Shown piece by piece: positions 6,280 to 59,794 of a stretch of DNA of 64,000 bases (its first letter is position 1; every line of letters begins with the position of its first letter). The translations under genes were made by a program, and so were the position numbers. The notes under the pieces are model-generated. The model saw nothing but the letters and a program-made list of their open reading frames with translations. It did not search any database and was not told the origin of the DNA. The stretch is from a virus (Duplodnaviria; Heunggongvirae; Uroviricota; Caudoviricetes), in the IMG/VR virus record IMGVR_UViG_3300031413_000001. One strand, given 5' to 3'.

Positions 6280-7159
6280 GGCTTTCACAGATACGCAACG
6301 TATTGCTCGTGAGGACATCTACGGCACTCTGACTTGGTTGGAGCGCCACTGGCCCGATTACATTCTAAATGACGGTAAGCCTCTGAGCAAAGTCATGCTG
6401 GGATCGGCTGGTAAGAACGAGACGTCTGGTGATATTGATCTGAACTTGAGCATTGATGTTTATGATCAGGCAAAAGTTGCCAATGACCTTATCGCCCTCT
6501 TGGGTGCCGATCACGTAAAGGCTCGTCCAGGCAACAACCAGATCTTCACATCCATTCCCATCAACGGAGATGCTGAGGCGCATGGTAGGGTCCAGGTGGA
6601 CTTTATGTTTGGTAACTTTGAGTGGCAGAAGTTCAGCTACTTTAGTGCTGGCAAGACTGACATGCTCCGCTGGGGCAATAGCAGTGCCAGCTACTTTAAG
6701 GGATTGTACAGAACGGAGATGATCAAGGCTATCACGGCCTATTGCTCCGACTGGGTATTGGAAGACAAGGGTGAGATCATCGCCCGCGTGGGTCCCACGT
6801 TCTTCCACGATCGGGGACTGCTCTGGCGTTATCGGCTTCGGCCAATGCGTCAGGATGGTACCGCGAGGGTCAAGGAATTCAAGGAACTCTCCAAGGAGGA
6901 ATTCTTGAAGGTTTACCCCAGCGCAGTTACGGCGCTAACTGACAAGATGGATGATCCCAAGAAGGTGGTTGAATACCTCTTCAACGGGCGTGGAAGTGTT
7001 GGTTCAGTGGACACGCTGGAAAGCATTGCCATGTATATGAATCGTGCCTTCGACAGTGATGCTCGAAGGACCATTTGTGCCATCTTTCTAGAGCGGCTAA
7101 ATAACCTGAAAGTTGAAGTCCCCATAAAGGATTTCAAGCACATTTACTTGCAGGTGTAA
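6263..7159 (+). CDS. putative nucleotidyltransferase (Pol-beta superfamily fold)
   Basis: Motif LGSAGKNETSGDIDLNL = hG[GS]x8D[IL]D. A later acidic residue lies in VQVDFMF. No further subfamily assignment possible by eye. Confidence 0.5.
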   Translation: MKMGGKAFTDTQRIAREDIYGTLTWLERHWPDYILNDGKPLSKVMLGSAGKNETSGDIDLNLSIDVYDQAKVANDLIALLGADHVKARPGNNQIFTSIPINGDAEAHGRVQVDFMFGNFEWQKFSYFSAGKTDMLRWGNSSASYFKGLYRTEMIKAITAYCSDWVLEDKGEIIARVGPTFFHDRGLLWRYRLRPMRQDGTARVKEFKELSKEEFLKVYPSAVTALTDKMDDPKKVVEYLFNGRGSVGSVDTLESIAMYMNRAFDSDARRTICAIFLERLNNLKVEVPIKDFKHIYLQV

Positions 7160-7398
7160 CCATGCGTTGGAATGAGATTGTAAACGAAACTTCGACCGCC
7201 GGATCAACAGCATCCGGCAATGTAGCGACCTCAGTTGGAAAAGCAGGCATGAAGGGTTCTATTGGTGCCGGCTTTGACTCCCAGGGTCACAAAGGAATCT
7301 ATGACGCAGCGGAGCGCAAAAAGGGTCGCAAAAAGAGCTGATTCCAGATGTGTTCCGATAAATAGATGCAACAGAAACTCTCTTTTAGGAGACTTCAA

Positions 7399-7792: not shown

Positions 7793-8032
7793 ATGTCATG
7801 CTGCGGGGCGAATTAGCTCTGCATATTCGGTAAGTTCCACGCGCAAGAGAGCTTCTTGCTTTCGCCGACGGGCAGCGAGGACTTCATCGACCAGTCGGGT
7901 ATTTCGACGAACTAGAAATGCACCATCGCGGATGATCTCGAATTCGTCGATTGGAAGTTCATTCTCATTCTCGTTCACTGCGGTCTCCCTGCTTATGTAA
8001 CAGGGTTAGCATCAGTGCGGAGTGTGTCAACC

Positions 8033-9703
8033 TTACTGACTGGGCATCAGGTGTGTTACGTCTCGGGCAACACTCTGAATTTCAATCAGCTTGCCATCGT
8101 CGTCAAAGATGCCGCGATCAATCCAGTCCTGCCAACGAGTCTCATTGTGGCGCTGAATCCTGTGGATACCACGACGCACTTCTGCTTCCGGTGAGATGCT
8201 GAGCATGTAAGCGATAAACTTCTCATGGTCGGTCTGTGGAATAACATCCAGGAGCGCAAAGCCGTTGATATCATCTAGCTCAACGTCAAAGTAATCCCTG
8301 AACGTCTGGTTGCTGAACGTGATCTCAAACTTGGCATTGAAACAAACCACCATGTCAATGGTGTTGTCAATGACCGTCTTGTAACGCTCACGCGATGCCT
8401 TCAATTGGGTATCAATATCCTTGAACGCCGTTACATCTCGGGCAACCACAATCTGTGCTTCCGCGTTGTCCCACTCGATTGGTCGACTGTTGAAGGCAAC
8501 CTCACGAACATCACCGCTCTTGGTCATCAAGAGAGTCTCGTAGCTTTCCGGTGCATCACTGTCCAGCTTGACTCGAATATGCTCACGCTCCAGGGGGTGG
8601 ACAAAATCAAGGGGATTGATCTTTTGTAGTTCGCTCTCGCTATAGCCGGTCAGTGTGATAAGGCGCTCGTTCCAATCTAGAAGCGAGGAGTTATCGTGGA
8701 TAAACATGCTCTCCGAACTTGCATCCGAGAATGCACGGAAGTGAGCCTCACTCTTGCGAAGATTCTGATATGCCTTCTTGAGTTCCGTGGTGTCATAGAA
8801 CACCAAGATCCACTGGTGAGCCTGATGACCCTTGATCACTGGGGTGATGTGGACGTCGAACCAAATGTCCGATGCACTTTCAAGCTCAAGCTGAACCTCG
8901 TGGCGAGCGGTTACTTCCTCACCAAGTGTCCGGCGAACCGTCCAGTAGCCCTTGTCAATTCCCAGCAGATCACGAAGACTCATCTTCTTTAGATCACGCC
9001 TCTTGGTCTTGGTCAAGCGAGCAAAGCCCTCGTTGACGAAGGTTACCTTGTAATCACTTCCGTCATTCTCGAGGATAACAAAGCCCGTGTTGGATGCGTC
9101 AATCGTCGTGACCAATTCCTGGTTACGTTCCGCTAGCTCACGCATCATCTGACCATTCTTCACACGATGGGTCACATTGCGGATTAGGATGATGTAATGA
9201 GTCTGCTTGTCACGACGAACCAGCTTGCTGGCGCCCACGTCGATATAGATTGTGGTTCCATCTTCCTTGACTCCCATGAATTCCTCATGATGATAAGTAG
9301 TGGTAAGTGGTTCGTCGCTGTTCACCAGGCCCATGAAGCTTTCCATGAACTCGGAGTTGACTTTTGTTCCCTCAGGAAACTGAAACAATGTGGAGATGCT
9401 CTTGCCGATGATATAACGCTTCTTCCACCCAAACATTGCCTCGGCCGCTGGGTTGAAGCTTTCAATAATGCCGTGAGTGTCCACAAGTAGGAGTGCATCG
9501 GCCAAGAGGCGCGACGTCTGTTCGATCTGTTGTGCGTAGTCGTCGAGTTTTGCCTGAAGGGTCTCGGTAACGTCCTGGGCAAGAGTCATCGTTCCCTTGG
9601 CAGCCTTCTCCAATGCATCACTGCTGGCGATGGCTGCCTTGAGACTTGCTTCGCGTGCTGCTTTCCTGTCAGTTTCCTTCTGACTCTGAAACAGCCACTT
9701 CAT
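8033..9703 (-). CDS. multi-PAS-domain sensor protein with no recognisable output domain
   Basis: 556 aa. Repeated PAS/PAC-like segments (e.g. LLVDTHGIIESFNPAAEAMFGWKKRYIIGKSISTLF, FVILENDGSDYKVTFVNEGFARL, SMFIHDNSSLLDWNERLITLTGYSESEL, MVVCFNAKFEITFSNQTFRDYF). No kinase, GGDEF, EAL or HTH motif seen. Confidence 0.7.
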   Translation of the reverse strand: MKWLFQSQKETDRKAAREASLKAAIASSDALEKAAKGTMTLAQDVTETLQAKLDDYAQQIEQTSRLLADALLLVDTHGIIESFNPAAEAMFGWKKRYIIGKSISTLFQFPEGTKVNSEFMESFMGLVNSDEPLTTTYHHEEFMGVKEDGTTIYIDVGASKLVRRDKQTHYIILIRNVTHRVKNGQMMRELAERNQELVTTIDASNTGFVILENDGSDYKVTFVNEGFARLTKTKRRDLKKMSLRDLLGIDKGYWTVRRTLGEEVTARHEVQLELESASDIWFDVHITPVIKGHQAHQWILVFYDTTELKKAYQNLRKSEAHFRAFSDASSESMFIHDNSSLLDWNERLITLTGYSESELQKINPLDFVHPLEREHIRVKLDSDAPESYETLLMTKSGDVREVAFNSRPIEWDNAEAQIVVARDVTAFKDIDTQLKASRERYKTVIDNTIDMVVCFNAKFEITFSNQTFRDYFDVELDDINGFALLDVIPQTDHEKFIAYMLSISPEAEVRRGIHRIQRHNETRWQDWIDRGIFDDDGKLIEIQSVARDVTHLMPSQ

Positions 9704-26033: not shown

Positions 26034-26301
26034 GCCATGCGTTCGTATGGGAGACCGCTGCACCGGCCATGGTGATGCTCCTCCACGTCCCAACGTGCAG
26101 GGAAGCCCCAACGTCTTCATCAATAGCAAGCCAGCACACCGTCAGGGTGATATGTGGGCCGTTCACAAAAACCATCCCAGCAAACTTGCCAGTGGCTCGA
26201 GCACCGTGTTCGTCAATGGCAAGGGCCAGGGCCGTGTGGGAGACCCAGTGTTGTGTGGATCCCGATGCGCCCAAGGTAGCCCAAATGTTTTTGCAGGATA
26301 G
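26026..26301 (+). CDS. PAAR-repeat protein (tail-spike tip, T4 gp5.4-like)
   Basis: 91 aa. Three PAAR-like repeats: GSPNVFINSKPAHRQGD, GSSTVFVNGKGQGRVGD, GSPNVFAG. Confidence 0.7.
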   Translation: MGKPCVRMGDRCTGHGDAPPRPNVQGSPNVFINSKPAHRQGDMWAVHKNHPSKLASGSSTVFVNGKGQGRVGDPVLCGSRCAQGSPNVFAG

Positions 26302-26303
26302 GC

Positions 26304-26332
26304 TTGACAACGAGTAAGCGGCCTACTAGATA
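26304..26332 (+). promoter_or_regulatory. sigma70-like promoter for the tmRNA gene
   Basis: TTGACA (26304-26309), a 17-nt spacer, then TAGATA (26327-26332). Predicted transcription start about 26339. Confidence 0.5.
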
Positions 26333-26339
26333 AGAGATG

Positions 26340-26750
26340 TTGTTGAAGACCAAGACTTAATAGCAAGTAGCGGACCCGGGGGCAGTACCCGGCAGATCCA
26401 CCATAACTGCGCGGCGCTGCCCTGGAAGCTAGCCGCTGCCCTCGAGTAGGGCGGTTATGATGGGTCTGAACCAGGATCGACGTGCGAGCGAACGGTTACG
26501 AGAAGATTGAGCTTCGGCTCATGAAGCGATGACAGGGTGGCTCCTTTAAAGGCCAAAGCATGTAAATGCAAACGACAACACCGTTGTCGAGGCACGTCTG
26601 GCCGCGTAAGCAGCCAGACGAGGTAGGATTGCTTCGGTAGTTCTATCGCGTCTCTTAAATCCCTAGGGGCTCAACTCCCTAGGTGAGGGTATGGCTCCAC
26701 CCGGTAACAGAACGGGCCACCTTTCCCATACAGATTGCATAATTACTAAG
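26340..26750 (+). ncRNA. ssrA: tmRNA (ssrA), apparently circularly permuted two-piece form
   Basis: Tag reading frame 26568-26609: GCA AAC GAC AAC ACC GTT GTC GAG GCA CGT CTG GCC GCG TAA = ANDNTVVEARLAA*. The 5' tRNA-like strand GGGUCUG (26462-26468) is followed by a GGAUCGACG box homologous to E. coli GGAUUCGACGG. The complementary 3' strand CAGAUCC-A-CCA (26393-26403) lies UPSTREAM and is preceded by a T-arm-like hairpin CCGGG-ggcagua-CCCGG (26376-26392). The predicted acceptor stem has a G3:U70 wobble pair, the AlaRS identity element. 3' boundary of the coding piece not determined. Confidence 0.6.
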
Positions 26751-26860
26751 AGACCAGTAATTATAGCTCGCCATATCTCGGTGTCGTAGGGAGCCTGAAA
26801 TACCGCGTGACAGTTAGCCAATTTGGTGCTAGCGGGGTCCGCGCAATACAGGAGTTCTCA

Positions 26861-28567
26861 ATGACACAGACAGATACCCGCCACCACATAACGGTGCAAG
26901 GGTTACTTGTCTGTGGCGTGGGGGATGAGGGTAACGTGGATAAAGCAATCAAATCTGATATTAATATCAAGATGCTTACCGACCTTGCGCCAACCATCAT
27001 TTGGACGCGGGACGCTTCGGGAAAGCTGACATATCTAAACAATTTTTGGTTTGAATTCACGGGCTGTGAATACACATTGATCGATGCTATCCTGTGGAAG
27101 GAGTCCATTCATCCCGATGACATGGATGACCTCCGGGAAAAGCTCAACGAAAGCATGGCGCGTGGCGAGCCATACGAGGCCGAGACGCGCATCAAGCGCC
27201 ATGACGGCGAGTACCGATGGTTTCGCATCGCAACCCGTGCCGTCAAGGATGAAGAAAACAATGTCATGCAGTGGCTGGGTGTTGCTTCCCCCATTCATGA
27301 ACTAAAAATCGCCCAAGAACGCGCCGACGTGGCGCATGATGAATTGGAGCGCATGGTAAAAGAACGCACCCGAGCTCTCGAGGACAGTCAACATCAGGTC
27401 TTGGAAGAGATCAATGCTCGACAGAAAATGGAAGACGCGCTTCGTCAGGCACAGAAGATGGAGTCAGTGGGTCAGCTGACTGGTGGAATTGCACACGATT
27501 TCAATAACATGCTGACGGTTATCATTGGCAACTTGGAGTTGCTGAAGATGAGCGCTCCCAATCTTGGTGACAATCCAGTTGCCAAGCGTATGGACAAGAA
27601 CGTCAACATGGCCATTGAGGCCGCGCTCAAGGCGGAAAAGCTGACGAGCCAGTTGCTGGCATTCTCCCGCAAGGCACGACTCCACCCCGAACGTCTTGAT
27701 GTCAACAAGGTCATCTTGGGCGTAAAGGAAATGGTCGACCGCGCAGTTGGTATCGCGATCACTTGTGAGATCGATCTACAAGACGATGTGTGGCTTTGCT
27801 TGAGCGACAAGACCCAGCTGGAAAGCGCGATCATCAATCTCTCGATCAATGCGCGGGACGCCATGCTGCCCAAAGGCGGTACACTTCGCATCTTCTCGCA
27901 GAACAAGACGATCGGCGATCTCCGCTACGTTAGTGTGGGTGTCAGGGATACTGGCACTGGCATTCCTCCAGAGATCTTGGAAAAGGTCTTTGAGCCATTC
28001 TTCACAACCAAAGATGTGGGCAAGGGAAGCGGTCTTGGACTGTCAATGGTTCACGGCTTCTGCCAGCAAAGCAATGGACGGGTGTTCATTGAAAGCAAGA
28101 TCGGTGAAGGCACCACTGTTGAGATGATCTTTCCCTACACGGCTGGGGAGAGCATTGACAAGGTCCAGGCCGACGAGGACTTCAACTACGACGAGAACAA
28201 GCGCAGCATCCTCGTGGTCGATGATGAGCCCGCGGTTCGTGAGCTGGCCTGTCAGCTACTGACTGATCTGGGCTACAATGTTGTCAGTGCCGAGAATGGA
28301 ACACAGGCAATTGAGTTCTTGGGCGATGACGAGATTCCCATCGATCTGCTCTTCACCGATGTGGTAATGCCCGGTGGTGTTGATGGCTTCCAGGTTGCCA
28401 AGTATGCACAAAGCGTCCGGCCAGGAATGCCCATTATCTTCACCACCGGTCACGCGGAAATCGCGCTCAACGAGTTGAAAAAGGATCTGAGCCAAAAGCT
28501 CAAGGTTATTGGAAAGCCCTACAGGCTCAATGAGTTAAGCCAGACGATTGCCCAAGAGCTTGCTTGA
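26861..28567 (+). CDS. hybrid sensor histidine kinase (PAS/PAC - HisKA - HATPase_c - receiver)
   Basis: AGGAG precedes the ATG at 26861. PAS/PAC domain ([23 protein letters not shown]...[17 protein letters not shown]). H-box [21 protein letters not shown]1, G2 boxes ([25 protein letters not shown]). C-terminal receiver domain ([12 protein letters not shown]...[11 protein letters not shown]...KPY). Confidence 0.85.
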
Positions 28568-28632
28568 TTATTGATATCCGTTAGGCCGCTCTGTTACTGT
28601 CTGGATCCTAAGAGAATCCAGAGGTAGAGAAA

Positions 28633-28821
28633 ATGGTCGCAAGTTCTTGGAAGCTACGTTTGGATCCCCGTTCCGAGGATCAGGTTGAAGATTGGTTGCG
28701 CGACGAAGGTTTCCGCGACTATGACGTCAACTATGGTCGCGAGGCGCTGGAGATTGAACTCTTCGAAATTGATGCAGCGTTTCGATTCCGTATGCAGTTC
28801 GATGATGAGATCCTAGCATAA
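28633..28821 (+). CDS. small acidic hypothetical protein
   Basis: 62-aa ORF followed by an 11-bp-stem hairpin. Confidence 0.4.
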   Translation: MVASSWKLRLDPRSEDQVEDWLRDEGFRDYDVNYGREALEIELFEIDAAFRFRMQFDDEILA

Positions 28822-28825
28822 CATT

Positions 28826-28857
28826 GGAGCGTGGGTTGCAGATGTGACCCACGCTCC
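28826..28857 (+). terminator. hairpin (weak terminator, poor U-tract)
   Basis: ggagcgtgggt-tgcagatgtg-acccacgctcc. Confidence 0.4.
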
Positions 28858-29078
28858 ATCCATGAGCGCAATACGCAAAATTGTGTAAAAACGAGCTTTT
28901 TATTGGAACGCCCAGATAATATGCTAGACAGGATTGTCATATCTGCATAACAAGGTGTAACAACGCACAACAAAACAACTTTGTTGCGTGTTTACGCCAT
29001 TGAAACCGTTTATGGAGAGCACAGGTACTTTCCACAAATTGTTGCAGTAGATCGGAACATAAAAAGTTAAAGGTCCTT

Positions 29079-29603
29079 ATGAGCCTCAATAACTACAATT
29101 CTGCAACAAACCTGATCAAAGCAATGGAAGATGGGGCTCAGTACGTTCGCGTAGTCGCCGGCGCCCGTGAGGGTTCGGTGGGCCGCGTAATGAGCGTCCG
29201 AAGTAAGTATTATAGCGCACACGATTATCATCTGGCCGTTAAGGGTCGCCGCAGCTTTTGGATGAAGGGCAGCGACTTGGAGCATCTCGAGAATTGGCGC
29301 GGTGGAACTTTCTACGCGCTGAATCGGGATACTCCAGTATTCAACGACCTGATGGGACGTCGTTTGGACGTGGGGCAAACGCTCCTGTTCCCGCGCGGAA
29401 CCGAAGGCGCTCGCGTCGATATGGTAATGGGCACGATCAAAAAGATCAGTGACAAAGGTGCCATCTACGCGAAGCTCTTCAAAAGTGGTCAGGGTAACGA
29501 TCTTGATGATTGCCTCGTACGGGTTGGGAAGCCCGGCAGCGCGATGATCATTGACAAAGGAACTGCTGACACGGTGATGATGGCCAAATTGGCCGCATTC
29601 TAA
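29079..29603 (+). CDS. hypothetical protein located between the kinase and regulator genes
   Basis: 174 aa. Two similar Gly/Arg/Val-rich half-domains (VRVVAGAREGSVGRVMSV / RVDMVMGTIKKISDKGAIYAKL). Preceded by an AT-rich 255-nt intergenic region. Confidence 0.5.
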   Translation: MSLNNYNSATNLIKAMEDGAQYVRVVAGAREGSVGRVMSVRSKYYSAHDYHLAVKGRRSFWMKGSDLEHLENWRGGTFYALNRDTPVFNDLMGRRLDVGQTLLFPRGTEGARVDMVMGTIKKISDKGAIYAKLFKSGQGNDLDDCLVRVGKPGSAMIIDKGTADTVMMAKLAAF

Positions 29604-29621
29604 GAGCCAAGGGGGCTATAA

Positions 29622-29969
29622 ATGTCGGGCAAAGTTCTAGTCGTTGAAGACGAACCCATGGTGCAAATCCTGCTAGAGGATATTTGCGCCCACGCAGACG
29701 TGGAAATCGTCGCGATGGTTGACACGGTCAAGGACGCACTCGCGGCCATTGATCGGGGCGGCTTCAAGGCTGTGATCCTCGACGTCAACCTCCACGGTGA
29801 GACCAGTGAGCCAATCGCCGCTGCACTACAGGGAAAGGGTTATCCCGTTCTCGTCTCCACTGGAAGTTTTCCCGGAGAGCTGCCCGCAGTGTTCAAGGAC
29901 TTCACGATTGTGCAGAAGCCCTTTAGCACCGTGGATATGGTACTCCTCTTGTCGCAGGTTGCTTTCTAA
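29622..29969 (+). CDS. single-domain response regulator (CheY-like receiver only)
   Basis: AAGGGGG precedes the ATG. Acidic pocket VVEDEP; phospho-acceptor Asp in AVILDVNLHG; conserved T/S (VSTG) and Lys (VQKPF). Confidence 0.8.
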   Translation: MSGKVLVVEDEPMVQILLEDICAHADVEIVAMVDTVKDALAAIDRGGFKAVILDVNLHGETSEPIAAALQGKGYPVLVSTGSFPGELPAVFKDFTIVQKPFSTVDMVLLLSQVAF

Positions 29970-30492: not shown

Positions 30493-31146
30493 ATGGACAA
30501 CATCACTGACTTCCTCGTAGCAGGACCCAATACCAGCTTTCTGGTAGCGGGTTGCGTCGTCGCAGCCGTTCTCATTCTCGAGATCGTTCTGCTAATCGTT
30601 GGTCACTCAACGATGATGATGAACGCAGATGTTGACATGACGCTCGACCTCGATGGAAATGGTATCCCCGATTATCTCGAGGGTCACGGTCATCTTGGCG
30701 ACTGGTTCAACCCCGGTCACATTCCCGTAACAATGTTCCTCGTGCTGTTCTGCGGACTACTAGCCCTCTTGGGTTACAGTGGTCAGTGGATCTATCTTGG
30801 ACAAGCGGGACAATTGGCTCCCGCCCTTCTCGCGGTTCCCATCACACTTGTTCCCACACTAGCATTCTCCCGCTGGTTTTCAGTTGGTCTGGCACGTATC
30901 ATCCCACAAGATGAAACAAACGCCATATCAGTTGAAAGTCTCGCGGGTGATGTTGGTGTGTTGACGACTGGGCCCGTACAGGGACGTGATGATTTTGGCA
31001 TGGCACGATTCGCCGACAAGTATGGGGTTGATCATGCCCTAGTAGTCGGTAGTGTTGATGACACGATTATTGAAACGGGCTCAAGCGTTGTGTTAGTTGG
31101 TCCACACCCTGAGAAGAGCATCGCTTTTATCATTCGCAAGATCTGA
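30493..31146 (+). CDS. NfeD/YqiJ-like membrane protein (partner of SPFH proteins)
   Basis: Multiple TM helices (VAGCVVAAVLILEIVLLIVG, VTMFLVLFCGLLALLG). C-terminal OB-fold-like segment GDVGVLTTGPVQGRDDFGMARF...GSSVVLVG. Immediately upstream of the flotillin gene, matching the E. coli yqiJ-yqiK arrangement. Confidence 0.55.
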   Translation: MDNITDFLVAGPNTSFLVAGCVVAAVLILEIVLLIVGHSTMMMNADVDMTLDLDGNGIPDYLEGHGHLGDWFNPGHIPVTMFLVLFCGLLALLGYSGQWIYLGQAGQLAPALLAVPITLVPTLAFSRWFSVGLARIIPQDETNAISVESLAGDVGVLTTGPVQGRDDFGMARFADKYGVDHALVVGSVDDTIIETGSSVVLVGPHPEKSIAFIIRKI

Positions 31147-31170
31147 TACCCAGATCAACAAGGAGACCCA

Positions 31171-32908
31171 AGTGGGCAATCTTCCCTTTATCGGACTAAT
31201 CGTGGGAGCGGTGATCGTAATCATCCTCCTGTTGGGCTTGCTGGCAGTCAAATTCTACCAGCGCGCAAGCAAGGAACAGGCTTTCGTTCGTACTGGTAAG
31301 GGCGGCCAGAAGGTCGTCAAGGACGGCGGCTCGGTTGTATGGCCGATCATTCAGGAAACCATCCCCATCAATATGCAGACGCTTCGTCTGACTGTTGAGC
31401 GGAAGGCCAAGGACTCGCTGATCACCAAGGATCGTCTCCGCGTTGACGTGAAGGCAGAGTTCTACGTTCGGGTTGCACCGGATGAGCAGAGCATTGCAGC
31501 CGCGGCACAGACGCTGGGCCGACGCACCCTTCAGCCGCAGCTTCTCGCAGAGCTGATTGAAGGCAAGTTCGTCGACGTCCTTCGCGCAGTGGCAGCAGGC
31601 ATGGACATGCAGGACCTTCACACTCAGCGGGCTGACTTCGTGAAGACGGTCAAGACCACTGCGGCAGAGGATCTCAAGGCCAACGGTCTGGAACTGGAGT
31701 CGGTGTCGCTGACCGGGTTGGACCAGACGTCCATCGAGCACTTCAACCCCAACAACGCCTTCGACGCAGAAGGTCTCGCCAAGCTGACCAACGTCACGGA
31801 GACGCGTCGCAAGGAGCGCAATGAAATCGAGCAGACCACGCGAGTGGCCATCGAGGAGCGCAACCTGTCGGCGACCAACCGAAGCCTGGAGCTCAAGCAG
31901 GAAGGCGAGTTCGCCCGCTTGCAGCAGGAGCAGAGCGTTGAAACGCGTTCGGCGGAGCAGGGTGCAAACCTGGCCAAGACCCGTGCTGATCGCCAGCGCG
32001 AGTCGGACATCGCAGCCATCGAGGCAGACCAGGCAACTGAAGCAGCACGGGTGAACAAGACCCGTACGATTCAGATTGCAGAAGCTGAAGCAGCTCGCGA
32101 TCTCGAACTGGCCGGCCAGGATCAGCGCATTCGCGTTGCTGCCAAGTCCCAGGAAGAGTCGGAAGCCCGTGCATCGGCCGATAAGGCACGTGCAATGGCC
32201 GTTGAGGCATCGGAAGCGGTCAAGACCGTGGAAGCAACTGCCCGAGCAGAGCGTGACCAGAAGGTTGCGGTCATTGCAGCAGAGACCGAGGCGCAGCGTG
32301 AGGCAGCTGGTATCAGCATCCGCGCGGAAGCTGAGTTCAAGGCAGCTGACAGCCAGGCAAAGGCTCGTGAGCGACTCATCGACGCCGATGCGAAGAAGTA
32401 CGAGGTTGAGGCCGAGGGTCAGCGCATGATCAACGAAGCAGCCAACACCATGTCGCCTGAGCAGGCAGCACTTCAGATCCGCTTGAAGCTTATCGAACAG
32501 CTTCCGCAGATCCTGGAGCAGATGGGCAAGCCCATCGAGAAGATTGACAGCTTCCGTGTCGTTCACATGAACGGCAGCATGGGCGGTGGTCACTCTTCGG
32601 GTTCGGTCGACGGTGAGACCACCGGCAACAGCGGCGGCAATCTGCCCACGCAGATGACCAACGCACTGCTGGACTATCGCTTGCAGGTTCCCATGGTCGA
32701 GGAAATGGCCAAGGAACTGGGCGTGGATATCTCGCGCGGCATGAACGGCATCGTGGACAGCATCGGCGGGGTCTCCAAGCCGGCCCCCAGTGCAACGCAG
32801 GCTACCAAGCCCGCCCCACGCGGTCACAAGACTGGTGATCCGGACATCATGACCGGGCTGGAGACGGAAAAGCTGCAGAAGCTTGCAGGCATTCACCCCG
32901 AGGGCTAA
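31171..32908 (+). CDS. flotillin-like SPFH/band-7 protein (YqiK-like) with long Ala/Glu/Arg coiled coil
   Basis: AAGGAG precedes the GTG at 31171. N-terminal TM helix, SPFH core (QTLRLTVERKAKDSLITKDRLRVDVKAEFYVRV). About 200 aa of EA/AR-rich coiled coil. Gly-rich C-terminal tail. Confidence 0.8.
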
Positions 32909-33030
32909 GTCCTCACTGATTGCTTGGGAGGGGCTGGACCAAAAGGTCTGGCCCCTTTTCTGTCTATTCTGTTGTAGACATGCGTGGAATTGGTGCTAGT
33001 AATGAGTCAGTGTTAAGCAAAAGGGATACG

Positions 33031-33690
33031 ATGAGCAGCAACATGGTCAGTAAGGTAGCAGCCGGCACCGGAGCGGCCTGCGTGTTCGTCGGCGGTCTCG
33101 CTGGCCTACCCTTTCCCTTCATTGGGGATCTTCTGGTCAGCACACCACTGGCGGCCGTGACGGGAATGGGCATCTGGTACTTTTGGCCAGGTCGTCGTCC
33201 AATCACCAAGGCAGAGGTCGAGCAGATCTTCGCCGATCAGGACAAGCTGAAGAACAGCAGCGGCGTTTCCAACAAGGAAGTCGTCGAGACCATCAAGTTG
33301 GTCTCCGACAAGCTGGATCGCATTCTGATGGAGGCCAGCAGCCTGAAGGGCCCCAATACGATCCGGCGCATCAAGCATCTGGATGCTGTTGGTCGGAAGA
33401 TCATCGAAGACTTCCGCCAGGATCCGTCGGACATCAAGCGCGCACAGAGCTGGATTCACAGTTATCTGGACCAGACGCTGGATTGCGTCAAGCAATACGC
33501 GCAGCTGAGCCGGAACGGTGCCCGCAGCATCGACGCGCAGCGGCAAATGGCGCAGTTCGACGACCTCTTGGACTTGCTGCATAGCAAGAGCCAGGAACTG
33601 CTCGACCATCTTCTCACCAACGACACCACCAACATGCAGGTAAACGTGGAAGTCTTCCGCGACATGCTCAACAACGAAGGGATCAAGTAA
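33031..33690 (+). CDS. XpaC-like membrane protein (5-bromo-4-chloroindolyl phosphate hydrolysis protein family, tentative)
   Basis: Two N-terminal TM helices (AAGTGAACVFVGGLAGLPFPFIGDLLV, LAAVTGMGIWYFW) followed by a helical soluble domain. Position immediately upstream of the TelA-like gene mirrors the Bacillus xpaC-yaaN pair. Start uncertain (33031 or 33040). Confidence 0.45.
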   Translation: MSSNMVSKVAAGTGAACVFVGGLAGLPFPFIGDLLVSTPLAAVTGMGIWYFWPGRRPITKAEVEQIFADQDKLKNSSGVSNKEVVETIKLVSDKLDRILMEASSLKGPNTIRRIKHLDAVGRKIIEDFRQDPSDIKRAQSWIHSYLDQTLDCVKQYAQLSRNGARSIDAQRQMAQFDDLLDLLHSKSQELLDHLLTNDTTNMQVNVEVFRDMLNNEGIK

Positions 33691-33692
33691 CC

Positions 33693-34856
33693 ATGGTAGA
33701 GACTGTTACGGCAACCGCAGTGGACACTTCCACGCTGATGCCAACCCCGGAACCGATCGGCAGCACGGCACTGGTAAGTCTCGCACCCGCGGGCACTGCA
33801 ATCCAGGTCAGCAAGGTGTCGCCGGAGCGCGCCAAGGAACTGGCGAAGAAGATCAACATTCGCGACACGCAGAGCATCATCGGCTTTGGCGTCGAAGCGC
33901 AGAAGAGCGTGTCGGCCGTTTCGGATCAGATGCTCGACGGCGTCCGCACCAAGGACACTGGCCCGGTCGGTGATTCGCTGAACCTGATGGTTCACGAGAT
34001 GCGCGGCCTGGACTTTGGTTCGCTGAGCCAGAAGCAGGGCTTCATCAGCAAGCTTCTCCGGAAGGCCAGCCGGGTCACGCTGTTCCTGGAGCAGTATGAG
34101 ACCGTGCAGAGCAAGATCAACAAGACGCAGGCCGTCCTGGAAGGTCACCGGGTCAACATGCTCCGCGGCGTGAAGATGCTCGATCTTCTCTACGTGAAGA
34201 CGCTGGAACTTCTCGGTTCGCTCGATGAGCAGGTCGCCGCAGTCCAGTACAAGCTGGAAGAAGTCAACACCATCGATATCCCGCAGGCCAATCAGAAGGC
34301 CCAGGAATCGCAGGACATGGCCGACACCCAGCTGGCCGCGGATCTGATTCAGGCGCGAGATGCACTGGAGCGCAAGCTGCATGATCTCCAGCTGACCCGT
34401 CAGATCACCATCCAGGCACTGCCCAGCATTCGCATCGTGCAGAGCAACGAGATTGGCCTCTCGGAGAAGATCCAGAGCCAGATCCTCAACGCACTGCCAC
34501 TGTGGAAGCGCAACATGGCACTGGCCATCGAAATGGCGAAGACGCAGAACGCCGCGAAGGCAACCAAGGCGGCTTCGGACTTCACCAACGAGCAGCTTCG
34601 TATGGGCAGCGACATGCTCCAGCAGAGCAATCTCGCAGTCCGCAAGGAAGTCGAGCGCGGCATCGTGGACGTGGACAGCGTCAAGTACGCCAACGACAAG
34701 CTGATCCAGACCATCGAGGACACGATCACCATCGCGCAGGAAGGCAAGAACATGCGCGCGGCGGCCGAGACCGAGTTGGCAGCGGCCGAGCAGCAGCTGA
34801 AGCAGACGCTGCTCAGCGCAGCGCAGCGCCAGGCAAACATGAAGGCAATCGCCTAA
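33693..34856 (+). CDS. TelA-like toxic-anion-resistance family protein
   Basis: 387 aa, all-helical. Regions GFGVEAQKSVSAVSDQMLDGVRTKDTGPVGDSLNLMVHEMRGLDF and QILNALPLWKRNMALAIEM are characteristic of TelA/YaaN/KlaA. Confidence 0.7.
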   Translation: MVETVTATAVDTSTLMPTPEPIGSTALVSLAPAGTAIQVSKVSPERAKELAKKINIRDTQSIIGFGVEAQKSVSAVSDQMLDGVRTKDTGPVGDSLNLMVHEMRGLDFGSLSQKQGFISKLLRKASRVTLFLEQYETVQSKINKTQAVLEGHRVNMLRGVKMLDLLYVKTLELLGSLDEQVAAVQYKLEEVNTIDIPQANQKAQESQDMADTQLAADLIQARDALERKLHDLQLTRQITIQALPSIRIVQSNEIGLSEKIQSQILNALPLWKRNMALAIEMAKTQNAAKATKAASDFTNEQLRMGSDMLQQSNLAVRKEVERGIVDVDSVKYANDKLIQTIEDTITIAQEGKNMRAAAETELAAAEQQLKQTLLSAAQRQANMKAIA

Positions 34857-47454: not shown

Positions 47455-48807
47455 TTAAAACTTTACCTTCTTCAAGGCCTCTACTTCTTCGCGGTAGAGG
47501 TCTTTTCGTACCTGTGGATCCTTCAAGATCCTGTTGTACTCCTTGATGTTGGCCTTTAGTTCCTTGATCTTGTCTAGGACCTGCTGATATGCGTCCTTGG
47601 TCCAACGATGGGCCGGTAGGTTGACGATGCGGTCGATTCGCTTGTCATCCAGCTTGAGCTTGATCGTTACCTTGTTGACATCTTGATCCAGTTCCACTCG
47701 GCTCTTGATCGCACCCAAGCGCGCTGGCAGTTTGTCATCAAAGCATAGCTTGACACCTTCCCAGAAGCCCAGCTCGTAGCTGTCCTTGTCAACCTTGTTC
47801 TGATAGCGTGTTGCGTACCAGTTCAAACGCCATGCCACAAAGTCCTCGACAACCTTCTCGGCGTTCTCATACTGACGGATTGCCTTGCCGTTCCAGTCGA
47901 TGACCACGATGCGCTCGCTCTTCTTCTGGCGTAGCTTGAAGTAGTCAATGATCTTGGCCTGGTCCCAGCCCTTTACCGCACCACGTGCCATCTTGACCGT
48001 GATGTCGATGGTGTCTGTGGAGCGATCAGTGTAGGTGCTGATCTTGCCATCGTCCTCGAATGTGTTGAGTCGTTCCTTGAACTTTTCCAGTGTGAGCTCT
48101 GGCGGCAACTCGGTGATCTTAACCGTCGAAGTGTCGAGGACCTCAGCCTTGCCAGTGAACTCCCAGGAGTTTTCCTCAAGGTGCTGAACGCCAACGTTGT
48201 AGAGTTCGTATGCTGGTGGAATCCTCTTGAGCTTTTTACCGTCTAGGACGTCCAGCGTGGCCTGAATCAAGCTCTTAAAGCTGCGGGGCAAGATCTCCGT
48301 TGACCAGCCCACAGCGATGCCGGAAACACCGTTTAGAAGCACAGTGGGGATCAGGGGGAGAAAGTGCTGCGGCTCAATTGTGGAGCCGTCGTAGTTTTCC
48401 TTGGTTGGCACAATGTCCATGTCGGGGAACATCAGTTCCATTGCTGCCTTGCCACGCTTGACGTATGTGTAGCGAGGAGCACCAATACCATCAACGGGAG
48501 CCACGCGAGTACCAAACGATCCAATGCCATCTAGAAGTGGCACGTTGTTGACATAAGGAGCGGCCAGCATGGAGATCGAACCGGCCGCCGAGGCGTCGCC
48601 GTGAAGATACAATCCGCTGCTGATCATCTCACCTGCCAGCGAGACTGTCTTGATCTTTTCACTCTTGCCCTTGACAAGCCAGAGTGCTTTGCGTTGTGCG
48701 TCCTTTAGACCGTCGGCAACCTTGGGGATTGCGCGGCTTTCGCAAACGTAGATGGAATATTCTCGACTGGTGTCTAGGATATAATTGGATGAGCTATTTT
48801 GGGTCAT
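47455..48807 (-). CDS. DNA topoisomerase II, GyrA/ParC-N-terminal-like subunit (T4 gp52-like)
   Basis: 450 aa. YSIYVCESRAIPKVADGLKDAQRKALW; active-site Tyr region PRYTYVK; tower/winged-helix segments. Confidence 0.85.
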   Translation of the reverse strand: MTQNSSSNYILDTSREYSIYVCESRAIPKVADGLKDAQRKALWLVKGKSEKIKTVSLAGEMISSGLYLHGDASAAGSISMLAAPYVNNVPLLDGIGSFGTRVAPVDGIGAPRYTYVKRGKAAMELMFPDMDIVPTKENYDGSTIEPQHFLPLIPTVLLNGVSGIAVGWSTEILPRSFKSLIQATLDVLDGKKLKRIPPAYELYNVGVQHLEENSWEFTGKAEVLDTSTVKITELPPELTLEKFKERLNTFEDDGKISTYTDRSTDTIDITVKMARGAVKGWDQAKIIDYFKLRQKKSERIVVIDWNGKAIRQYENAEKVVEDFVAWRLNWYATRYQNKVDKDSYELGFWEGVKLCFDDKLPARLGAIKSRVELDQDVNKVTIKLKLDDKRIDRIVNLPAHRWTKDAYQQVLDKIKELKANIKEYNRILKDPQVRKDLYREEVEALKKVKF

Positions 48808-53180: not shown

Positions 53181-53436
53181 CCCACGTCAACTTGAAGATC
53201 ATCTGTTCCACTTTGTTCTTACAGTGGATATTGATGCGGGTCTTGTACCCACCATCAGCAGCTTGAGTACTTGGATTTCTGTCATAGGACGTTGCGATTT
53301 TGTGGCTTGGCATCATTTTATCGAGCCAAGCCACAAAGCTATCATAGTCGTCCGTCGTCACTGCGCCAAACCAAATATCTTCGAAAAGAGGGTGTGGTCC
53401 ACAGTGACGCATATCAACCCTCACAGGCCAATCCAC
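53167..53436 (-). CDS. FKLxWGG family small protein (array copy 16)
   Basis: C-terminus HCKNKVEQMIFKLTWGGSV. Its start overlaps the end of the gp39-like gene. Confidence 0.55.
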   Translation of the reverse strand: MDWPVRVDMRHCGPHPLFEDIWFGAVTTDDYDSFVAWLDKMMPSHKIATSYDRNPSTQAADGGYKTRINIHCKNKVEQMIFKLTWGGSV

Positions 53437-55289
53437 TCCTTGCGGTCATCGGAACGCTTGCTGTTGAAGATCAGATCCAACGTTTCACCCATTGTGCCGT
53501 CATCGGTCACAGGATAAACTTCTGGGTTCTTCAGCGAGTACTCCCAATCCTCACGAGTTAGAGTACCAAGACCCTTTGCGCGAGTGATAGCCCAGCCGCT
53601 GTAATCTTCGGGCTTGAAGTCCTGGTAGTTGTGGGCGTACCAGTACTTTCTCAGCTTTCCCTTTTCCGCAATGATGAATGGTGTGCGGAAGATGTACACG
53701 AATGGCTTGGCCTGATCAGCGAACAGCTCTGGCCAATATGTGTGGAAGAAGTTGATCAACAGCGCACCAATGTTCAATCCGTCCGGATCCATGTCGTGCG
53801 CCACATAGACCTTGCCATAGCGAAGATCGCTCAGCTTGGCCTTTTGACCAATGACCAGTCCCATGCAGTTCATGATGTCCGCGAGCTCTTTGTTCTCAAT
53901 GACCTTCTTGGGCATTTCGCCGTTGACGTTGAGAACCTTACCCTTCATTCCCAGACCACCATGCAGATCAGGATCACGAGCAGCGCCCATTCCCGAAATA
54001 GCACTTTCACCCTCTGCTAGGAAGAGAATGCACTTGGTGCGATCCTGACCAGCAGCGTCCATCAAACGAGGAACCTTGTTTCGTAGGTTCTTCTTGCTGG
54101 CCTTCGCTAGATCGCTGATGTCCTTTTTCATCGTGCGCTCAGAACAACGCTTGTAGATTTCCTCAATCCAGTCACGATTCTTGCGGATGAATTCCTTGTA
54201 GAGTTCGGGGTTCTCAAGATCAGCGCGGATGACCTTGCCCACTTCCTCATTGATCAGTCGAGTCTTGCTCTGGCTGTCAAAGTTCGGACCGTTCATGTTC
54301 GTGATGTTGTAGATCAGAACACCTTCCGTTACGTCGGAGCGGTTGGGGCTGAGCTTGCGGCGCTTGCTTTCCTTTTCCAGTGCGGTCAAAAGATTGCCGT
54401 AGAATAGGCGACGGAATGTCTCGATGTGGACACCGCCGTTGAAAGCAGGAATGTTGTTGACGATGGTGTGAACGTGATCTCCACCAGTTGTCCAATTGGG
54501 AACAATCCAAAAGCGACTACGGAAGTCCTCTGCCTTGATTTCAATGGCCATTGGCTTCAAGCCCGGAAACAGCGTTTGCTCTGGCCTTGGCTTTACCTTG
54601 ATCAGCTCTCCGTTGTAGAAGATCTTGATCAGTGGGTTGCAGATCGCAACCTCGGTGATGCGACTGCGGACAAACTCCTCGGGAAGCGTCATGTCGGGGA
54701 AGACTGCCTCGCTGAGCTTGAACGTTACCTTGGTGCTGTTCTCACCCTTTCGAGCATTGATTTTGGTCTTGCCAAATTGCAGCTCATCGTTGGCAGCCGT
54801 TCCCTGAGTGAACTCCTGCTGAAAGCGTTCGCCATCCTTTTGAATGTCCAGTCGGAAGAACTCGCTGCAGAAGTTGACCACCGATGCACCAATACCATTG
54901 GTACCGGCAACCTGGCCACGCTCTTCAAAGTTACGTCCGGCTCGTGCCTCGGTCATAACCAGTGTTGCAAGGTGCATGTTGTGGGCATCATCCCAGGCGA
55001 TTGGGATACCGCGACCATCATCCTCAATGGAGATTTCACGACCAACCGGATCATAGGTTACCTTAACGCGCGTTCCGTGACCATGACCAACAACCTCGTC
55101 GAGTGCGTTGTCGAGCACCTCGCGAAAAGCCGTATATAGTGCAGGGACCCAAGTGATCTCCTGAGGCACAGGCATGCCGTCTTTGATCTGCAGAATCGTC
55201 TGCGTGTGAGGGGCACGACTTCCCAGATACATCTCCGTTCGGAGTCTGGCGTGCTGATAATCTGTGAGTTTCTTGATTTTGTTTGACAT
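53421..55289 (-). CDS. DNA topoisomerase II large subunit, GyrB-like ATPase plus TOPRIM (T4 gp39 plus gp60 equivalent, unsplit)
   Basis: 622 aa. GHKL ATPase motifs (EVLDNALDE, DDGRGIP, GTNGIGAS). TOPRIM ILFLAEGESA...VYVAHDMDPDG. Length indicates the gp39 and gp60 parts are in one polypeptide. Confidence 0.9.
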   Translation of the reverse strand: MSNKIKKLTDYQHARLRTEMYLGSRAPHTQTILQIKDGMPVPQEITWVPALYTAFREVLDNALDEVVGHGHGTRVKVTYDPVGREISIEDDGRGIPIAWDDAHNMHLATLVMTEARAGRNFEERGQVAGTNGIGASVVNFCSEFFRLDIQKDGERFQQEFTQGTAANDELQFGKTKINARKGENSTKVTFKLSEAVFPDMTLPEEFVRSRITEVAICNPLIKIFYNGELIKVKPRPEQTLFPGLKPMAIEIKAEDFRSRFWIVPNWTTGGDHVHTIVNNIPAFNGGVHIETFRRLFYGNLLTALEKESKRRKLSPNRSDVTEGVLIYNITNMNGPNFDSQSKTRLINEEVGKVIRADLENPELYKEFIRKNRDWIEEIYKRCSERTMKKDISDLAKASKKNLRNKVPRLMDAAGQDRTKCILFLAEGESAISGMGAARDPDLHGGLGMKGKVLNVNGEMPKKVIENKELADIMNCMGLVIGQKAKLSDLRYGKVYVAHDMDPDGLNIGALLINFFHTYWPELFADQAKPFVYIFRTPFIIAEKGKLRKYWYAHNYQDFKPEDYSGWAITRAKGLGTLTREDWEYSLKNPEVYPVTDDGTMGETLDLIFNSKRSDDRKEWIGL

Positions 55290-57952: not shown

Positions 57953-59206
57953 ATGAGTGAAAAGAAGAATCTGAGCTGCTCTTTTTGTGGTAAGAAGCAA
58001 GAAGCCGTTCAGAAGCTGATTGCTGGTCCGGATGTCTTTATCTGTAACGATTGTGTTCAGCTCTGTGCCGATATCCTAAAGGAAGACGACAACACGGCAA
58101 CCAAGATGCCGGTAAAGGATGGGGCCATTCCCAGCCCTCGTACCATTCGTGAGTTTCTCGATCAGTATGTGATCGGCCAGGAAGCTGCCAAGATGGTCAT
58201 GAGCGTGGCGGTCCACAACCATTACAAGCGGTTGGCCAATCCAGTGGTTGATGATGTTGAGCTCGAGAAGTCCAACATTCTCCTACTGGGCCCAACGGGC
58301 AGCGGTAAGACACTTATGGCAAAGAGCATTGCCAAGCTACTGGATGTTCCCTTTACTATCGCAGACGCCACCAGCCTAACTGAGGCGGGCTATGTGGGTG
58401 ACGATGTTGAAACCATCATCACTCGATTGCTGCAGGTTTGCGACAACGATGTGTCCAAGGCGGAACGCGGCATCATCTACCTCGACGAGGTGGACAAGAA
58501 GGCCAAGAAGAGTGAAGGCTCCAGCGTTAGCAGGGACGTATCGGGCGAAGGCGTTCAGCAGGCACTCCTGAAGATCATCGAAGGCTCAGAAGTTCGTGTT
58601 CCCGTACAGGGCAACCGAAAGCATCCCAACAGCGAGATGGTGGTTGTAAATACCAAGAACATCCTGTTTATCGTTGGTGGTGCATTCGTTGGTCTTGATG
58701 AGATCATTGGAAAGCGCCTCAACAAGGGCAAGGGCGGAATTGGCTTTGGTGCATCTGTTAAGTCGGACATTGACAAGGATGTATCCAGTGCCCTCTTGAG
58801 CCAGGTTGAGCCAGAGGATCTTACCAAGTATGGTCTGATTCCTGAAATGGTTGGCCGTCTCCCAGTTATCACACACTTGGAGGAGTTGGACCAGGACCAG
58901 TTGGTCAAGGTTCTCACTGAGCCCAAGAACGCGCTTATCAAGCAGTTTGAGAAGATCTTCCAGCTGGAAGATGTCAAGCTGGACTTTGACAAGGAAGCCC
59001 TTCGTGCCATTGCCAAGGACGCTATCACTCGGAAGACGGGTGCTCGTGGTCTGCGGTCCGTTATTGAAAAGCGGTTGATCCGCGTTCAATATGACCTCCC
59101 TGACCTTAAGGAAGCTGGAGCAACAGCTATCCGCGTGGGCAAGGATGTCATTGAAGGAAAGAGCGAGCCACTGGTGGTCTATGACCCCAAGGCAGCAAAC
59201 GAGTAA
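57953..59206 (+). CDS. clpX: ATP-dependent Clp protease ATP-binding subunit ClpX
   Basis: Zinc-binding CSFCGK...CNDC. Walker [16 protein letters not shown] pore loop. Walker [10 protein letters not shown]. Sensor/IGF region RVPVQG...; C-terminal SRGLR. Confidence 0.9.
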
Positions 59207-59272: not shown

Positions 59273-59794
59273 GTGAACTCTCAGTATGCGGTAAACGACC
59301 AAATTCGGGCAAGGGAGGTTCGCCTCATTGCCGACAACGGTGATCAGTTGGGCGTCATCCCAACCATTGAAGCGCGTCGTCGTGCAACAGTGGCCGGCTT
59401 GGACCTAGTTGCCATCAACATCAGCAATGGTGTTCCAATCTGTAAGATCCTCGACTACGGCAAGTTCAAGTATGAGCAGAGCCGGAAAGAGCGTGAGAAC
59501 GCAAAGAAGAACCGCGAGAGCCGGGTGGAGCTCAAGGAAATTCAGTTGCGGCCGACCACTGATAGCAATGACATTCAGATCAAGGCCAAGAGGGCGCAGG
59601 GCTTCCTGAATGATGGCGACAAGGTAAAGGTCGTGATGAAGTTCAAGGGTCGTGAGATCACCCACTTGGATGTTGGTGCCGACGTTATGGTCAGCTTTAT
59701 CAACGCCCTGACTGATTACAAGCTGGAACGCCCAATCAGTAGAAGTGAGCGCCAGTTGTTTGCCATCATTATGCCGGCTCCCAAAAAGGCATAA
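59273..59794 (+). CDS. infC: translation initiation factor IF-3
   Basis: GTG start. NDQIRAREVRLI, LDLVAI...PICKILDYGKFKYE, KEIQLRPTTDSNDIQIKAKRAQGFLNDGDKVKV...KFKGRE are the canonical IF3 N- and C-domain motifs. Confidence 0.85.
   Translation: MNSQYAVNDQIRAREVRLIADNGDQLGVIPTIEARRRATVAGLDLVAINISNGVPICKILDYGKFKYEQSRKERENAKKNRESRVELKEIQLRPTTDSNDIQIKAKRAQGFLNDGDKVKVVMKFKGREITHLDVGADVMVSFINALTDYKLERPISRSERQLFAIIMPAPKKA

Follow-up and report, generated by a model that had tools for sequence, protein, structure and literature searches.

Receivers of the FATGUY type, among them SdrG, MrrA and Sma0114 and also the receiver domain of CckA (CckA-Rec) and CpdR, are phosphotransfer intermediaries (PMC9981736). 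MrrA in particular is a promiscuous hub that is phosphorylated by many HWE/HisKA2 kinases as well as by CC2874, a classical hybrid HisKA kinase that needs no receiver (Rec) domain of its own for this reaction, and it hands the phosphate to LovK/PhyK and onward to PhyR (PMC5964349). Here we describe what appears to be a viral version of such a system. It lies between positions 26,861 and 29,969 of a 64,000-nucleotide (nt) stretch, hereafter called the window, of the Caudoviricetes record IMGVR_UViG_3300031413_000001, and includes a hybrid histidine kinase, a protein of 174 amino acids (aa) and a small stand-alone receiver. By its sequence and predicted fold, the small receiver is assigned to the SdrG/Sma0114 FATGUY class and not to the CheY, DivK or CpdR types. 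By analogy with MrrA, we propose with a probability of about 0.42 that this receiver may serve as a phospho-shuttle or sink toward host HWE/HisKA2 kinases, and that the phage kinase may act as an extra input whose sensor can be swapped.

The assignment of the receiver is drawn from sequence searches, conserved residues and a structural model. Response_reg is its sole Pfam domain, at 32.5 bits and barely over the cut-off of 30.2. A phmmer search of the Protein Data Bank (PDB) returns SdrG (5IEB, E-value 4e-20) and Sma0114 (2LPM, 2e-14), followed by the receivers of PhyR, and SdrG is again the top Foldseek match of the AlphaFold2 model, with 40% identity and a TM score of 0.81. In this predicted structure (pLDDT 87.5), helix alpha4 is missing, and just two short turns lie between strand beta4 (residues 76-80) and strand beta5 (residues 95-98). 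Residues E9-D10, D54, T80 and K99-P100 are kept in all 17 small phage receivers that were aligned, with Ser/Thr-Gly at T80. An aromatic switch residue is lacking: the position of Tyr106 in CheY, three residues before the conserved Lys, is occupied by Ile96, where SdrG carries Val and Sma0114 carries Leu. At beta4, the FATGUY motif PFxFATG[G/Y] reads PVLVSTGS in the window receiver, which keeps P, T and G, replaces both Phe residues by Val or Leu and ends on Ser in place of G/Y. Bacterial relatives of the receiver (35-44% identity) carry the canonical PFVFATGY, and two of the three nearest that were examined sit directly behind PAS/GAF-HWE_HK kinases.

The sequence-only reading had proposed a CheY-, DivK- or CpdR-type receiver that rewires host chemotaxis or the cell cycle. 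A protein that consists of a receiver alone and retains its phosphorylation site would be compatible with this proposal, but the Ile at the aromatic switch position, the absence from the model of the alpha4 helix of the 4-5-5 face and the identity of the best relatives all argue against it. The NCBIfam scores of the small receiver are likewise far under the family cut-offs: its matches include no CheY and no CpdR model, and a DivK-like model yields 22.7 bits against a cut-off of 160. The CpdR model is matched by the receiver domain fused to the kinase only, and there with 80 bits against a cut-off of 180. The class of the receiver thus leaves chemotaxis or cell-cycle rewiring without specific support, and we regard this proposal as very improbable. 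The general-stress network of alphaproteobacteria, which is built on HWE/HisKA2 kinases, is the better-founded target.

The kinase is a complete hybrid kinase, as the sequence-only reading had stated, and its residues predict that it is catalytically intact. Pfam recognizes a PAS_3 domain (60 bits), HisKA (35 bits, cut-off 26.9), HATPase_c (73.8 bits) and a C-terminal Response_reg domain (67.5 bits). The longest open reading frame (ORF) begins at a GTG at 26807 and encodes 586 aa, with PAS_3 at residues 76-160 in that numbering; the lengths of homologs (568-572 aa) and gene calls made independently favor the ATG at 26861 that had been chosen before. An alignment of 30 kinases of the phage clade reveals invariant residues in the H-box (His212 in the 568-aa numbering), the N-box (N326/N330), the G1 box (D363xG365xG367), the F-box, the G2 box (GKGSGLGLS) and the fused receiver (D454/D455, D500, T529 and K552). 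Specifically, the features of a HisKA-type kinase (an H-box within the dimerization and histidine phosphotransfer domain, or DHp, followed by N, G1, F and G2 boxes) and of a hybrid kinase (a fused acceptor Asp) are all present, and no catalytic His or Asp has been lost among the approximately 30 kinases and 17 receivers. Conservation is highest in the DHp and lowest in the PAS domain and N-terminus. The protein contains no transmembrane segment (maximum Kyte-Doolittle value 1.33) and is thus expected to be cytoplasmic. A light-oxygen-voltage (LOV), heme or other cofactor signature in the PAS domain of the window kinase was considered and rejected, the domain having no motif of the NCRFLQ type. 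The PHROG family phrog_5982 matches the kinase at 3.9e-117, which indicates that hybrid kinases are already present, unannotated, in phage protein sets.

Other matches of the kinase raise a different possibility. Its top NCBIfam matches are PRK13557 and CckA, and its core is most similar, among solved structures, to the DHp and catalytic domains of Caulobacter CckA (5IDJ, 1e-40). The H-box aligns to GGVAHDFNNLL of CckA, and the fused receiver (acceptor Asp500) best matches 28tm and CckA-Rec (6TNE) and has the FxxG[YH]AE motif of a class that is tied to ChpT-type partners (PMC9981736). The phage kinase might therefore mimic CckA, with its fused receiver acting on host ChpT to drive or drain CtrA/CpdR and so hijack the cell cycle; the small receiver would then form a branch like that of CpdR, perhaps with ClpX as its target. 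Such a scheme is in keeping with the exploitation of host CtrA by alphaproteobacterial phages (PMC9437464), and the phage itself encodes a ClpX with a zinc-finger N-domain. However, all of these NCBIfam matches are below cut-off, and the CckA equivalogs NF046020 and NF046026 reach 314 and 263 bits against a cut-off of 1000 and cover only the core. Thousands of hybrid kinases are equally similar, and the phage kinase lacks the membrane-anchored, multi-PAS architecture of CckA. Moreover, ClpX is a backbone gene found also in relatives that have neither kinase nor receiver, and the CpdR similarity noted above resides in the fused receiver. We consider CckA mimicry quite unlikely, and this applies equally to its CpdR-like branch.

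The locus is virus-borne, as the earlier reading had also claimed. Phage genes border the kinase and receiver on both sides, and the window encodes a primase, a DnaB helicase, a virion structural protein and a ribonucleotide reductase (RNR), together with PAAR, DUF4326, YqiJ, flotillin and TelA proteins and, further along, gyrase, ClpX, initiation factor 3 (IF3) and ribosomal protein S21. The virion protein shares 38% identity with its counterpart in the 469-kb Sinorhizobium phage Phosso, with Agrobacterium phage Atu_ph07 as the next match, and the closest cultured relative of the lineage is the jumbo phage Phosso. In a 20-kb megablast comparison with known phages, the sole match is 59 bp within the RNR gene. 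The gene order RNR, glutaredoxin, (other genes), PAAR, transfer-messenger RNA (tmRNA), kinase, 62-aa ORF, approximately 174-aa protein, receiver, (DUF4326), YqiJ, flotillin, XpaC-like protein and TelA is found again on contigs of 468,011 and 480,938 bp, on many others and in IMG/VR viral genomes. The contigs of this lineage are 435-481 kb long, more than 10 of them share the order, and IMG/VR classes the relatives' contigs as viral.

One might suspect chromosomal DNA of the host that adjoins a prophage, or a bacterial fragment binned in error, given that the closest named homologs of both the kinase and the receiver are bacterial. The flanking phage genes, the syntenic contigs of up to 481 kb and their viral classification contradict this, as does the finding that all of the approximately 29 closest kinase homologs stand in phage synteny. 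In addition, a profile of the 174-aa protein finds no relative in 185,579 species-representative bacterial and archaeal genomes. A host origin of the locus is therefore next to impossible.

The host itself is probably an alphaproteobacterium, because an alpha-type tmRNA is conserved in the lineage, the cultured relatives infect Sinorhizobium and Agrobacterium, and the nearest named bacterial kinases are mainly alphaproteobacterial. The tmRNA gene of the window scores 90.2 bits with RF01849 (alpha_tmRNA, gathering threshold 50) and 86 bits with RF04321, and a tmRNA is found at the equivalent position in Phosso and in the related contigs L002, L005, L007, L015, L016 and L018. ARAGORN predicts the tag ANDNTVVEARLAA, whose back-translation matches none of the 185,579 genomes. 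Five relatives also carry a tRNA gene directly downstream of the receiver (L002 13211-13283, L005 13158-13229, L007 14692-14763, L015 6939-7010 and L016 6916-6988), such that their module is bracketed by tmRNA and tRNA; the window has no such tRNA.

The arrangement of the genes is more complex than it first seemed. The three plus-strand ORFs of the ORF listing are all present as claimed, and the receiver gene begins 18 nt past the stop of the 174-aa gene. The sequence-only reading had placed a 255-nt AT-rich spacer directly after the kinase, but the distance from the kinase stop to the 174-aa start is 511 nt, and this interval contains a conserved 62-aa ORF that had been overlooked, a hairpin and an AT-rich region. 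Counted from the stop of the 62-aa ORF, the interval is 257 nt long with a GC content of 42%. The 62-aa ORF is present also in relatives that lack the kinase, and its product matches no Pfam, PHROG or PADLOC model. A GC-rich stem, mostly followed by TTTTCT, occupies the equivalent spot in nine loci; RNAalifold finds compensatory changes in 10 of its 12 pairs, and the hairpin is retained in relatives without the kinase. Since the conserved ORF and this covariation-supported terminator divide the region, it consists of two transcription units, one with the kinase and 62-aa genes and one with the 174-aa and receiver genes.

Table 1. Positions of the features of the kinase-receiver locus and of other genes in the window.
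Feature	Position	Strand	Basis
Hybrid histidine kinase, 568 aa	26861-28567	+	Pfam, NCBIfam, PDB matches, homolog alignment, dN/dS
Single-domain receiver, 115 aa, predicted SdrG/Sma0114 (FATGUY-like) class, phospho-acceptor Asp54	29622-29969	+	PDB, AlphaFold2, Foldseek, alignment
Acidic 62-aa ORF, isoelectric point 4.2, no His	28633-28821	+	Independent calls on related contigs
Terminator-type hairpin, 15 bp	28825-28858	+	Folding energy -30.3 kcal/mol, z -5.3
AT-rich spacer, ~220 nt, locus-specific conserved blocks	28859-29078	+	Alignment A6
174-aa backbone protein	29079-29603	+	Predicted fold: helix, two KOW/SH3-like barrels, final helix
Alpha-type permuted tmRNA, left boundary of the kinase insertion point	26300-26721	+	Rfam RF01849, RF04321; ARAGORN
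Four-PAS protein, 556 aa, no output domain	8033-9703	-	Pfam, NCBIfam
Membrane-associated module: YqiJ/NfeD-like, flotillin/SPFH, XpaC-like (Halogen_Hydrol), TelA	30493-34856	+	
ClpX	57953-59206	+	Zinc-finger CSFCG, Walker A
IF3	59273-59794	+	
Gyrase B-like ORF	53421-55289	-	
Probable topoisomerase subunit A gene	47455-48807	-	

The spacer downstream of the terminator holds the blocks CTAGACTGGC, AACAACGCRC..TTAGTTGC and AGATCGRA, which are conserved across divergent phages whose proteins are merely 45-70% identical. In the window these appear as a CTAGACTGGC-like block, AACAACGCAC..TTTGTTGC at 28959-28987, and AGATCGGA. RNAalifold gives no structural support for these blocks. A general phage promoter was ruled out as their identity because they do not recur elsewhere in the window. 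The spacer is presumably the promoter, operator or 5′ untranslated region of the unit that encodes the 174-aa protein and the receiver.

The 174-aa protein, which the sequence-only reading had listed as unknown between the two signaling proteins, is not a component of a relay. It matches no Pfam or NCBIfam model, and its structural model (pLDDT 82.6) has a tandem KOW/SH3-like fold. Its family is small, and the protein stands alone in every case. In Phosso its homolog immediately precedes the YqiJ-like gene, and kinase, 62-aa ORF and receiver are all absent from the vicinity. The gene is thus co-transcribed with the receiver yet older in the lineage; it belongs to the backbone and does not encode a phosphotransferase. 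Downstream of the receiver, the membrane-associated module listed in Table 1 also occurs in Phosso.

The history of the locus can be reconstructed from the relatives. The approximately 29 closest homologs of the kinase (45-99% identity) are all phage-borne and located at the same locus, and the phage kinases form one clade, whose branching mirrors the backbone tree, apart from bacterial kinases, which reach at most 45% identity in the core. The kinase therefore appears to have been gained once, inherited vertically and lost at least twice, because kinase-less loci nest at two places inside the kinase-bearing clade. The 62-aa ORF, the 174-aa gene and the receiver remain in the kinase-less contigs L015 (462 kb), L016 (465 kb), L017/L018 (436 kb) and L019; in L015 and L018, approximately 200 nt separate the tmRNA from the 62-aa ORF. 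A move of the kinase to another site in these phages was considered and rejected, as a DNA scan for the H-box identified seven of 2.9 million viral contigs, none of them kinase-less (three large contigs).

Along this history the sensory part of the kinase has been exchanged. Most of the kinases have a PAS domain only, GAF plus PAS appears in two separate parts of the tree and PAS plus PAS in one. The GAF-PAS kinases are 741-763 aa long (L007 10001-12292; P0023/P0024) and the PAS-PAS kinase 721 aa (L008 10001-12166), with the core otherwise conserved.

All four genes are under purifying selection, and the receiver is still constrained after loss of the kinase. In deep comparisons the synonymous rate (dS) is saturated for most pairs, and selection was therefore read from near-identical strains of independent samples. 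At this level, the ratio of the non-synonymous rate (dN) to dS is 0.05-0.08 for the kinase; the receiver has 7-8 synonymous differences, the 174-aa gene 5-6 and the 62-aa ORF 3-4, each with no non-synonymous difference. Receivers of kinase-less phages retain their catalytic residues, and receiver dN, taken relative to backbone dN, is similar in phages that have the kinase and in phages that lack it. Decay of the receiver into a pseudogene after kinase loss is disfavored: the receiver frame of L017 (6542-6895) has TAG at a conserved Trp codon, but the near-identical L018 from a sister sample is intact with TGG, and the TAG was taken as a polymorphism or a fault of the assembly.

Every phage with the kinase also has the receiver (8 of 8 distinct phages), at a spacing that is constant across kinase identities of 46 to 99%. 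Regardless, the two proteins are not an obligate cognate pair, since several related phages keep the receiver without the kinase. This pattern bears on two further explanations. In the first, the proteins would form a private phage circuit in which the kinase phosphorylates the receiver and the receiver contacts a phage target. The candidates for this target would be the co-transcribed 174-aa protein or the YqiJ-flotillin-TelA module, and a cue sensed by the PAS domain would time a phage process, for example late expression, lysis or superinfection exclusion. The 18-nt distance between the 174-aa gene and the receiver in every receiver-bearing phage, the absence of any kinase without a receiver and the locus-specific blocks in the upstream spacer are all consistent with such a circuit, and TelA-type modules of jumbo phages have been proposed to function in superinfection exclusion or pseudolysogeny (PMC7824862). 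However, the receiver stays intact and constrained in kinase-less phages, and must there have another phosphodonor or work unphosphorylated. Phosso, moreover, has the 174-aa gene and the membrane module without the receiver, and FATGUY-class receivers are described as intermediaries, not as allosteric effectors. We judge a private circuit to be rather unlikely, and the same holds for the targets and timings named.

In the second explanation, the two are unrelated accessory genes, with the receiver acting as a decoy or phosphate sink for host kinases and the kinase working through a host histidine phosphotransfer (Hpt) protein and response regulator. The separate transcription units, the independent loss of the kinase with retention of the receiver, the differing rates at which the two evolve and the pairing of the receiver's bacterial relatives with HWE and not HisKA kinases would all be expected under this explanation. 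On the other hand, unrelated genes would not account for a kinase that never occurs without the receiver and for a spacing that holds across the full range of kinase identities, and the CC2874-MrrA pair is an example of a FATGUY receiver served by a hybrid HisKA kinase. That the two genes are functionally unrelated seems decidedly unlikely.

We favor the reading in which the receiver is a shuttle or sink toward host kinases and the phage kinase supplies an additional input. The core element would be the small receiver, which has no output domain and belongs to a class of promiscuous phosphotransfer intermediaries; it would trade phosphoryl groups with HWE/HisKA2 kinases and phosphotransferases of the host at the general-stress node around PhyR. 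A receiver that exchanges phosphate with such host proteins could survive loss of the phage kinase. Where present, the phage kinase would autophosphorylate on His212 when its PAS domain senses a cytoplasmic cue, and would load phosphate onto Asp54 of the receiver, or unload it, directly, by analogy with the direct transfer from CC2874 to MrrA. An H-D-x-x-N motif in HisKA kinases predicts both kinase and phosphatase activity. The phage kinase has this motif and is thus predicted to be bifunctional. It might serve as the virus's own sensory input to a host signaling hub, such that the host response is either switched on or drained. In its widest form, this reading would have giant phages use kinases with swapped sensors to read the state of the cell and to control the general-stress or HWE/HisKA2 network of the host through an SdrG-like hub, which we consider rather unlikely. 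If true, it would represent a virus-run two-component input to a core stress pathway, and may set the tempo of infection or pseudolysogeny.

Several observations weigh against the shuttle reading. The FATGUY signature is derived to PVLVSTGS across the phage clade. The neighboring phage kinase is of the HisKA type and not of the HWE/HisKA2 type, and its fused receiver, being like CckA-Rec, would also suit a ChpT-dependent relay. The conserved terminator separates the kinase and receiver units. The receiver is only 34-55% identical where the kinase is 63-70% identical and 81% of DHp columns are conserved; a receiver that diverges so much faster than the DHp bears no sign of co-evolution with it. 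The scan with the tmRNA tag gave no host, and a PhyR-type network in the host is an assumption.

The route between the two phage proteins is a further point of this kind. A hybrid kinase normally needs an Hpt or ChpT protein to reach a terminal receiver. The sequence-only reading had spoken of both halves of a phosphorelay; the intact kinase and the receiver are there, but Pfam detects no Hpt, HPTransfase or ChpT-like domain in the module proteins or in 67 further ORFs of the window, a scan that covered 64 kb of an approximately 464-kb genome and leaves room for such a gene elsewhere. Two candidates for the missing phosphotransferase were rejected, namely the 174-aa protein by its KOW/SH3-like fold and its presence in Phosso, and the 62-aa protein because it contains no histidine.

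Other features of the window and of its relatives deserve mention. A second PAS-only sensor had been reported from the sequence alone, and the protein in question indeed has four PAS domains. Its gene runs on the strand opposite its neighbors, and the protein is 63-76% conserved in related phages, including L038. It is possibly an accessory sensor; its presence in L038, a kinase-less phage, indicates that it is not linked to the kinase. A known anti-phage defense system was also considered for the module, and no PADLOC model fits: the only match is a weak, generic receiver similarity of the kinase to PD-T4-6 (18.7 bits), and nine other proteins that were scanned have none. The clpX gene adjoins that of IF3, with the gyrase and topoisomerase genes nearby, and matches to ribosomal protein S21 and S-adenosylmethionine decarboxylase fall within 49.7-63.9 kb. 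Sinorhizobium phage AP-J-162 has been described with the same clpX/IF-3/topoisomerase neighborhood.

An unrelated viral contig, L046 (IMGVR_UViG_3300049988_000286, 499,572 bp, GC content 58%) encodes at 8001-9590 a 529-aa kinase composed of PAS, HisKA, HATPase and receiver domains. Its N-terminal PAS domain has the canonical LOV motif NCRFLQ, and no small receiver is found within 8 kb. This protein may be a virus-borne blue-light sensor kinase, and some giant phages might thus respond to light. Among the relatives, the large RNR subunit of L008 (1190-4986) is split by an intein-like insert, with a NUMOD3 endonuclease gene nearby (6458-7360), and the PAAR protein of L007 (7962-9086) carries a fused, VgrG3-like domain at its C-terminus.

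Phages that eavesdrop on their hosts are known, and do so with receptors for small peptides or quorum-sensing signals. A canonical His-Asp set that has long been kept by a viral lineage would represent a different route, one that would sense the intracellular state and write into the phosphorylation network of the host. That it has long been maintained is indicated by kinase identities that range from 99% to approximately 45% at the same locus and by strain-level dN/dS values of at most 0.08. Together, these data suggest that the phage lineage reads the state of the cell and feeds host phospho-signaling. The kinase losses, at least two in number and each with the receiver kept, offer a natural experiment and a testable hierarchy, in which the receiver would be the core and the kinase an add-on input. 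The proteins also form a compact, soluble set for studies of the role of the FATGUY motif and of the promiscuity of this receiver class.

Virus-borne sensory genes have been described before. Pelagiphage curli clusters include histidine kinases (PMC9599517), and a survey of jumbo phages reported only a divergent, kinase-independent 'cREC' domain (PMC7824862). The published description of Sinorhizobium phage AP-J-162 mentions no kinase, and full-text literature searches retrieved no description of a module formed by a kinase and a FATGUY receiver. Other signal-sensing genes of phages are the agr genes of phiCDHM1, VqmA of phage VP882 and the arbitrium system. None of these, nor the pelagiphage kinases or the PHROG families, pairs a hybrid kinase with a FATGUY receiver, and for none has long vertical inheritance with sensor swapping been shown. 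Thus, what is new here is the viral version of a known signaling system; the component families are ordinary, which limits the surprise.

Bacterial systems offer several parallels. Like SdrG of Sphingomonas melonis, MrrA of Caulobacter and Sma0114 of Sinorhizobium, the phage protein is a receiver-only protein of approximately 115-125 aa, and it shares with them the spacing between beta4 and beta5, the missing alpha4, the lack of an aromatic switch and the DVNL context of the phosphorylation site. Like Sma0114, its bacterial relatives stand behind HWE kinases. It differs from all three in being encoded by a virus, in its derived signature and in the HisKA type of the kinase nearby. CckA resembles the phage kinase in its H-box (GG[IV]AHDFNN[ML]L), its 5IDJ-like core and a fused receiver with FxxG[YH]AE as in 6TNE, whereas the phage kinase has a single PAS domain and no transmembrane anchor, and no ChpT, CtrA or CpdR gene lies nearby. 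In the LovK-LovR system of the Caulobacter general stress response, a receiver drains the hub and a bifunctional kinase is its phosphatase; this parallel is an analogy only, and LovK, unlike the phage kinase, is a HisKA2 LOV kinase. In the CC2874-MrrA pair of Caulobacter crescentus, as in the phage locus, a HisKA hybrid kinase ending in a Rec domain is found together with a FATGUY-class receiver; in the phage, a terminator and a backbone gene come between the two genes.

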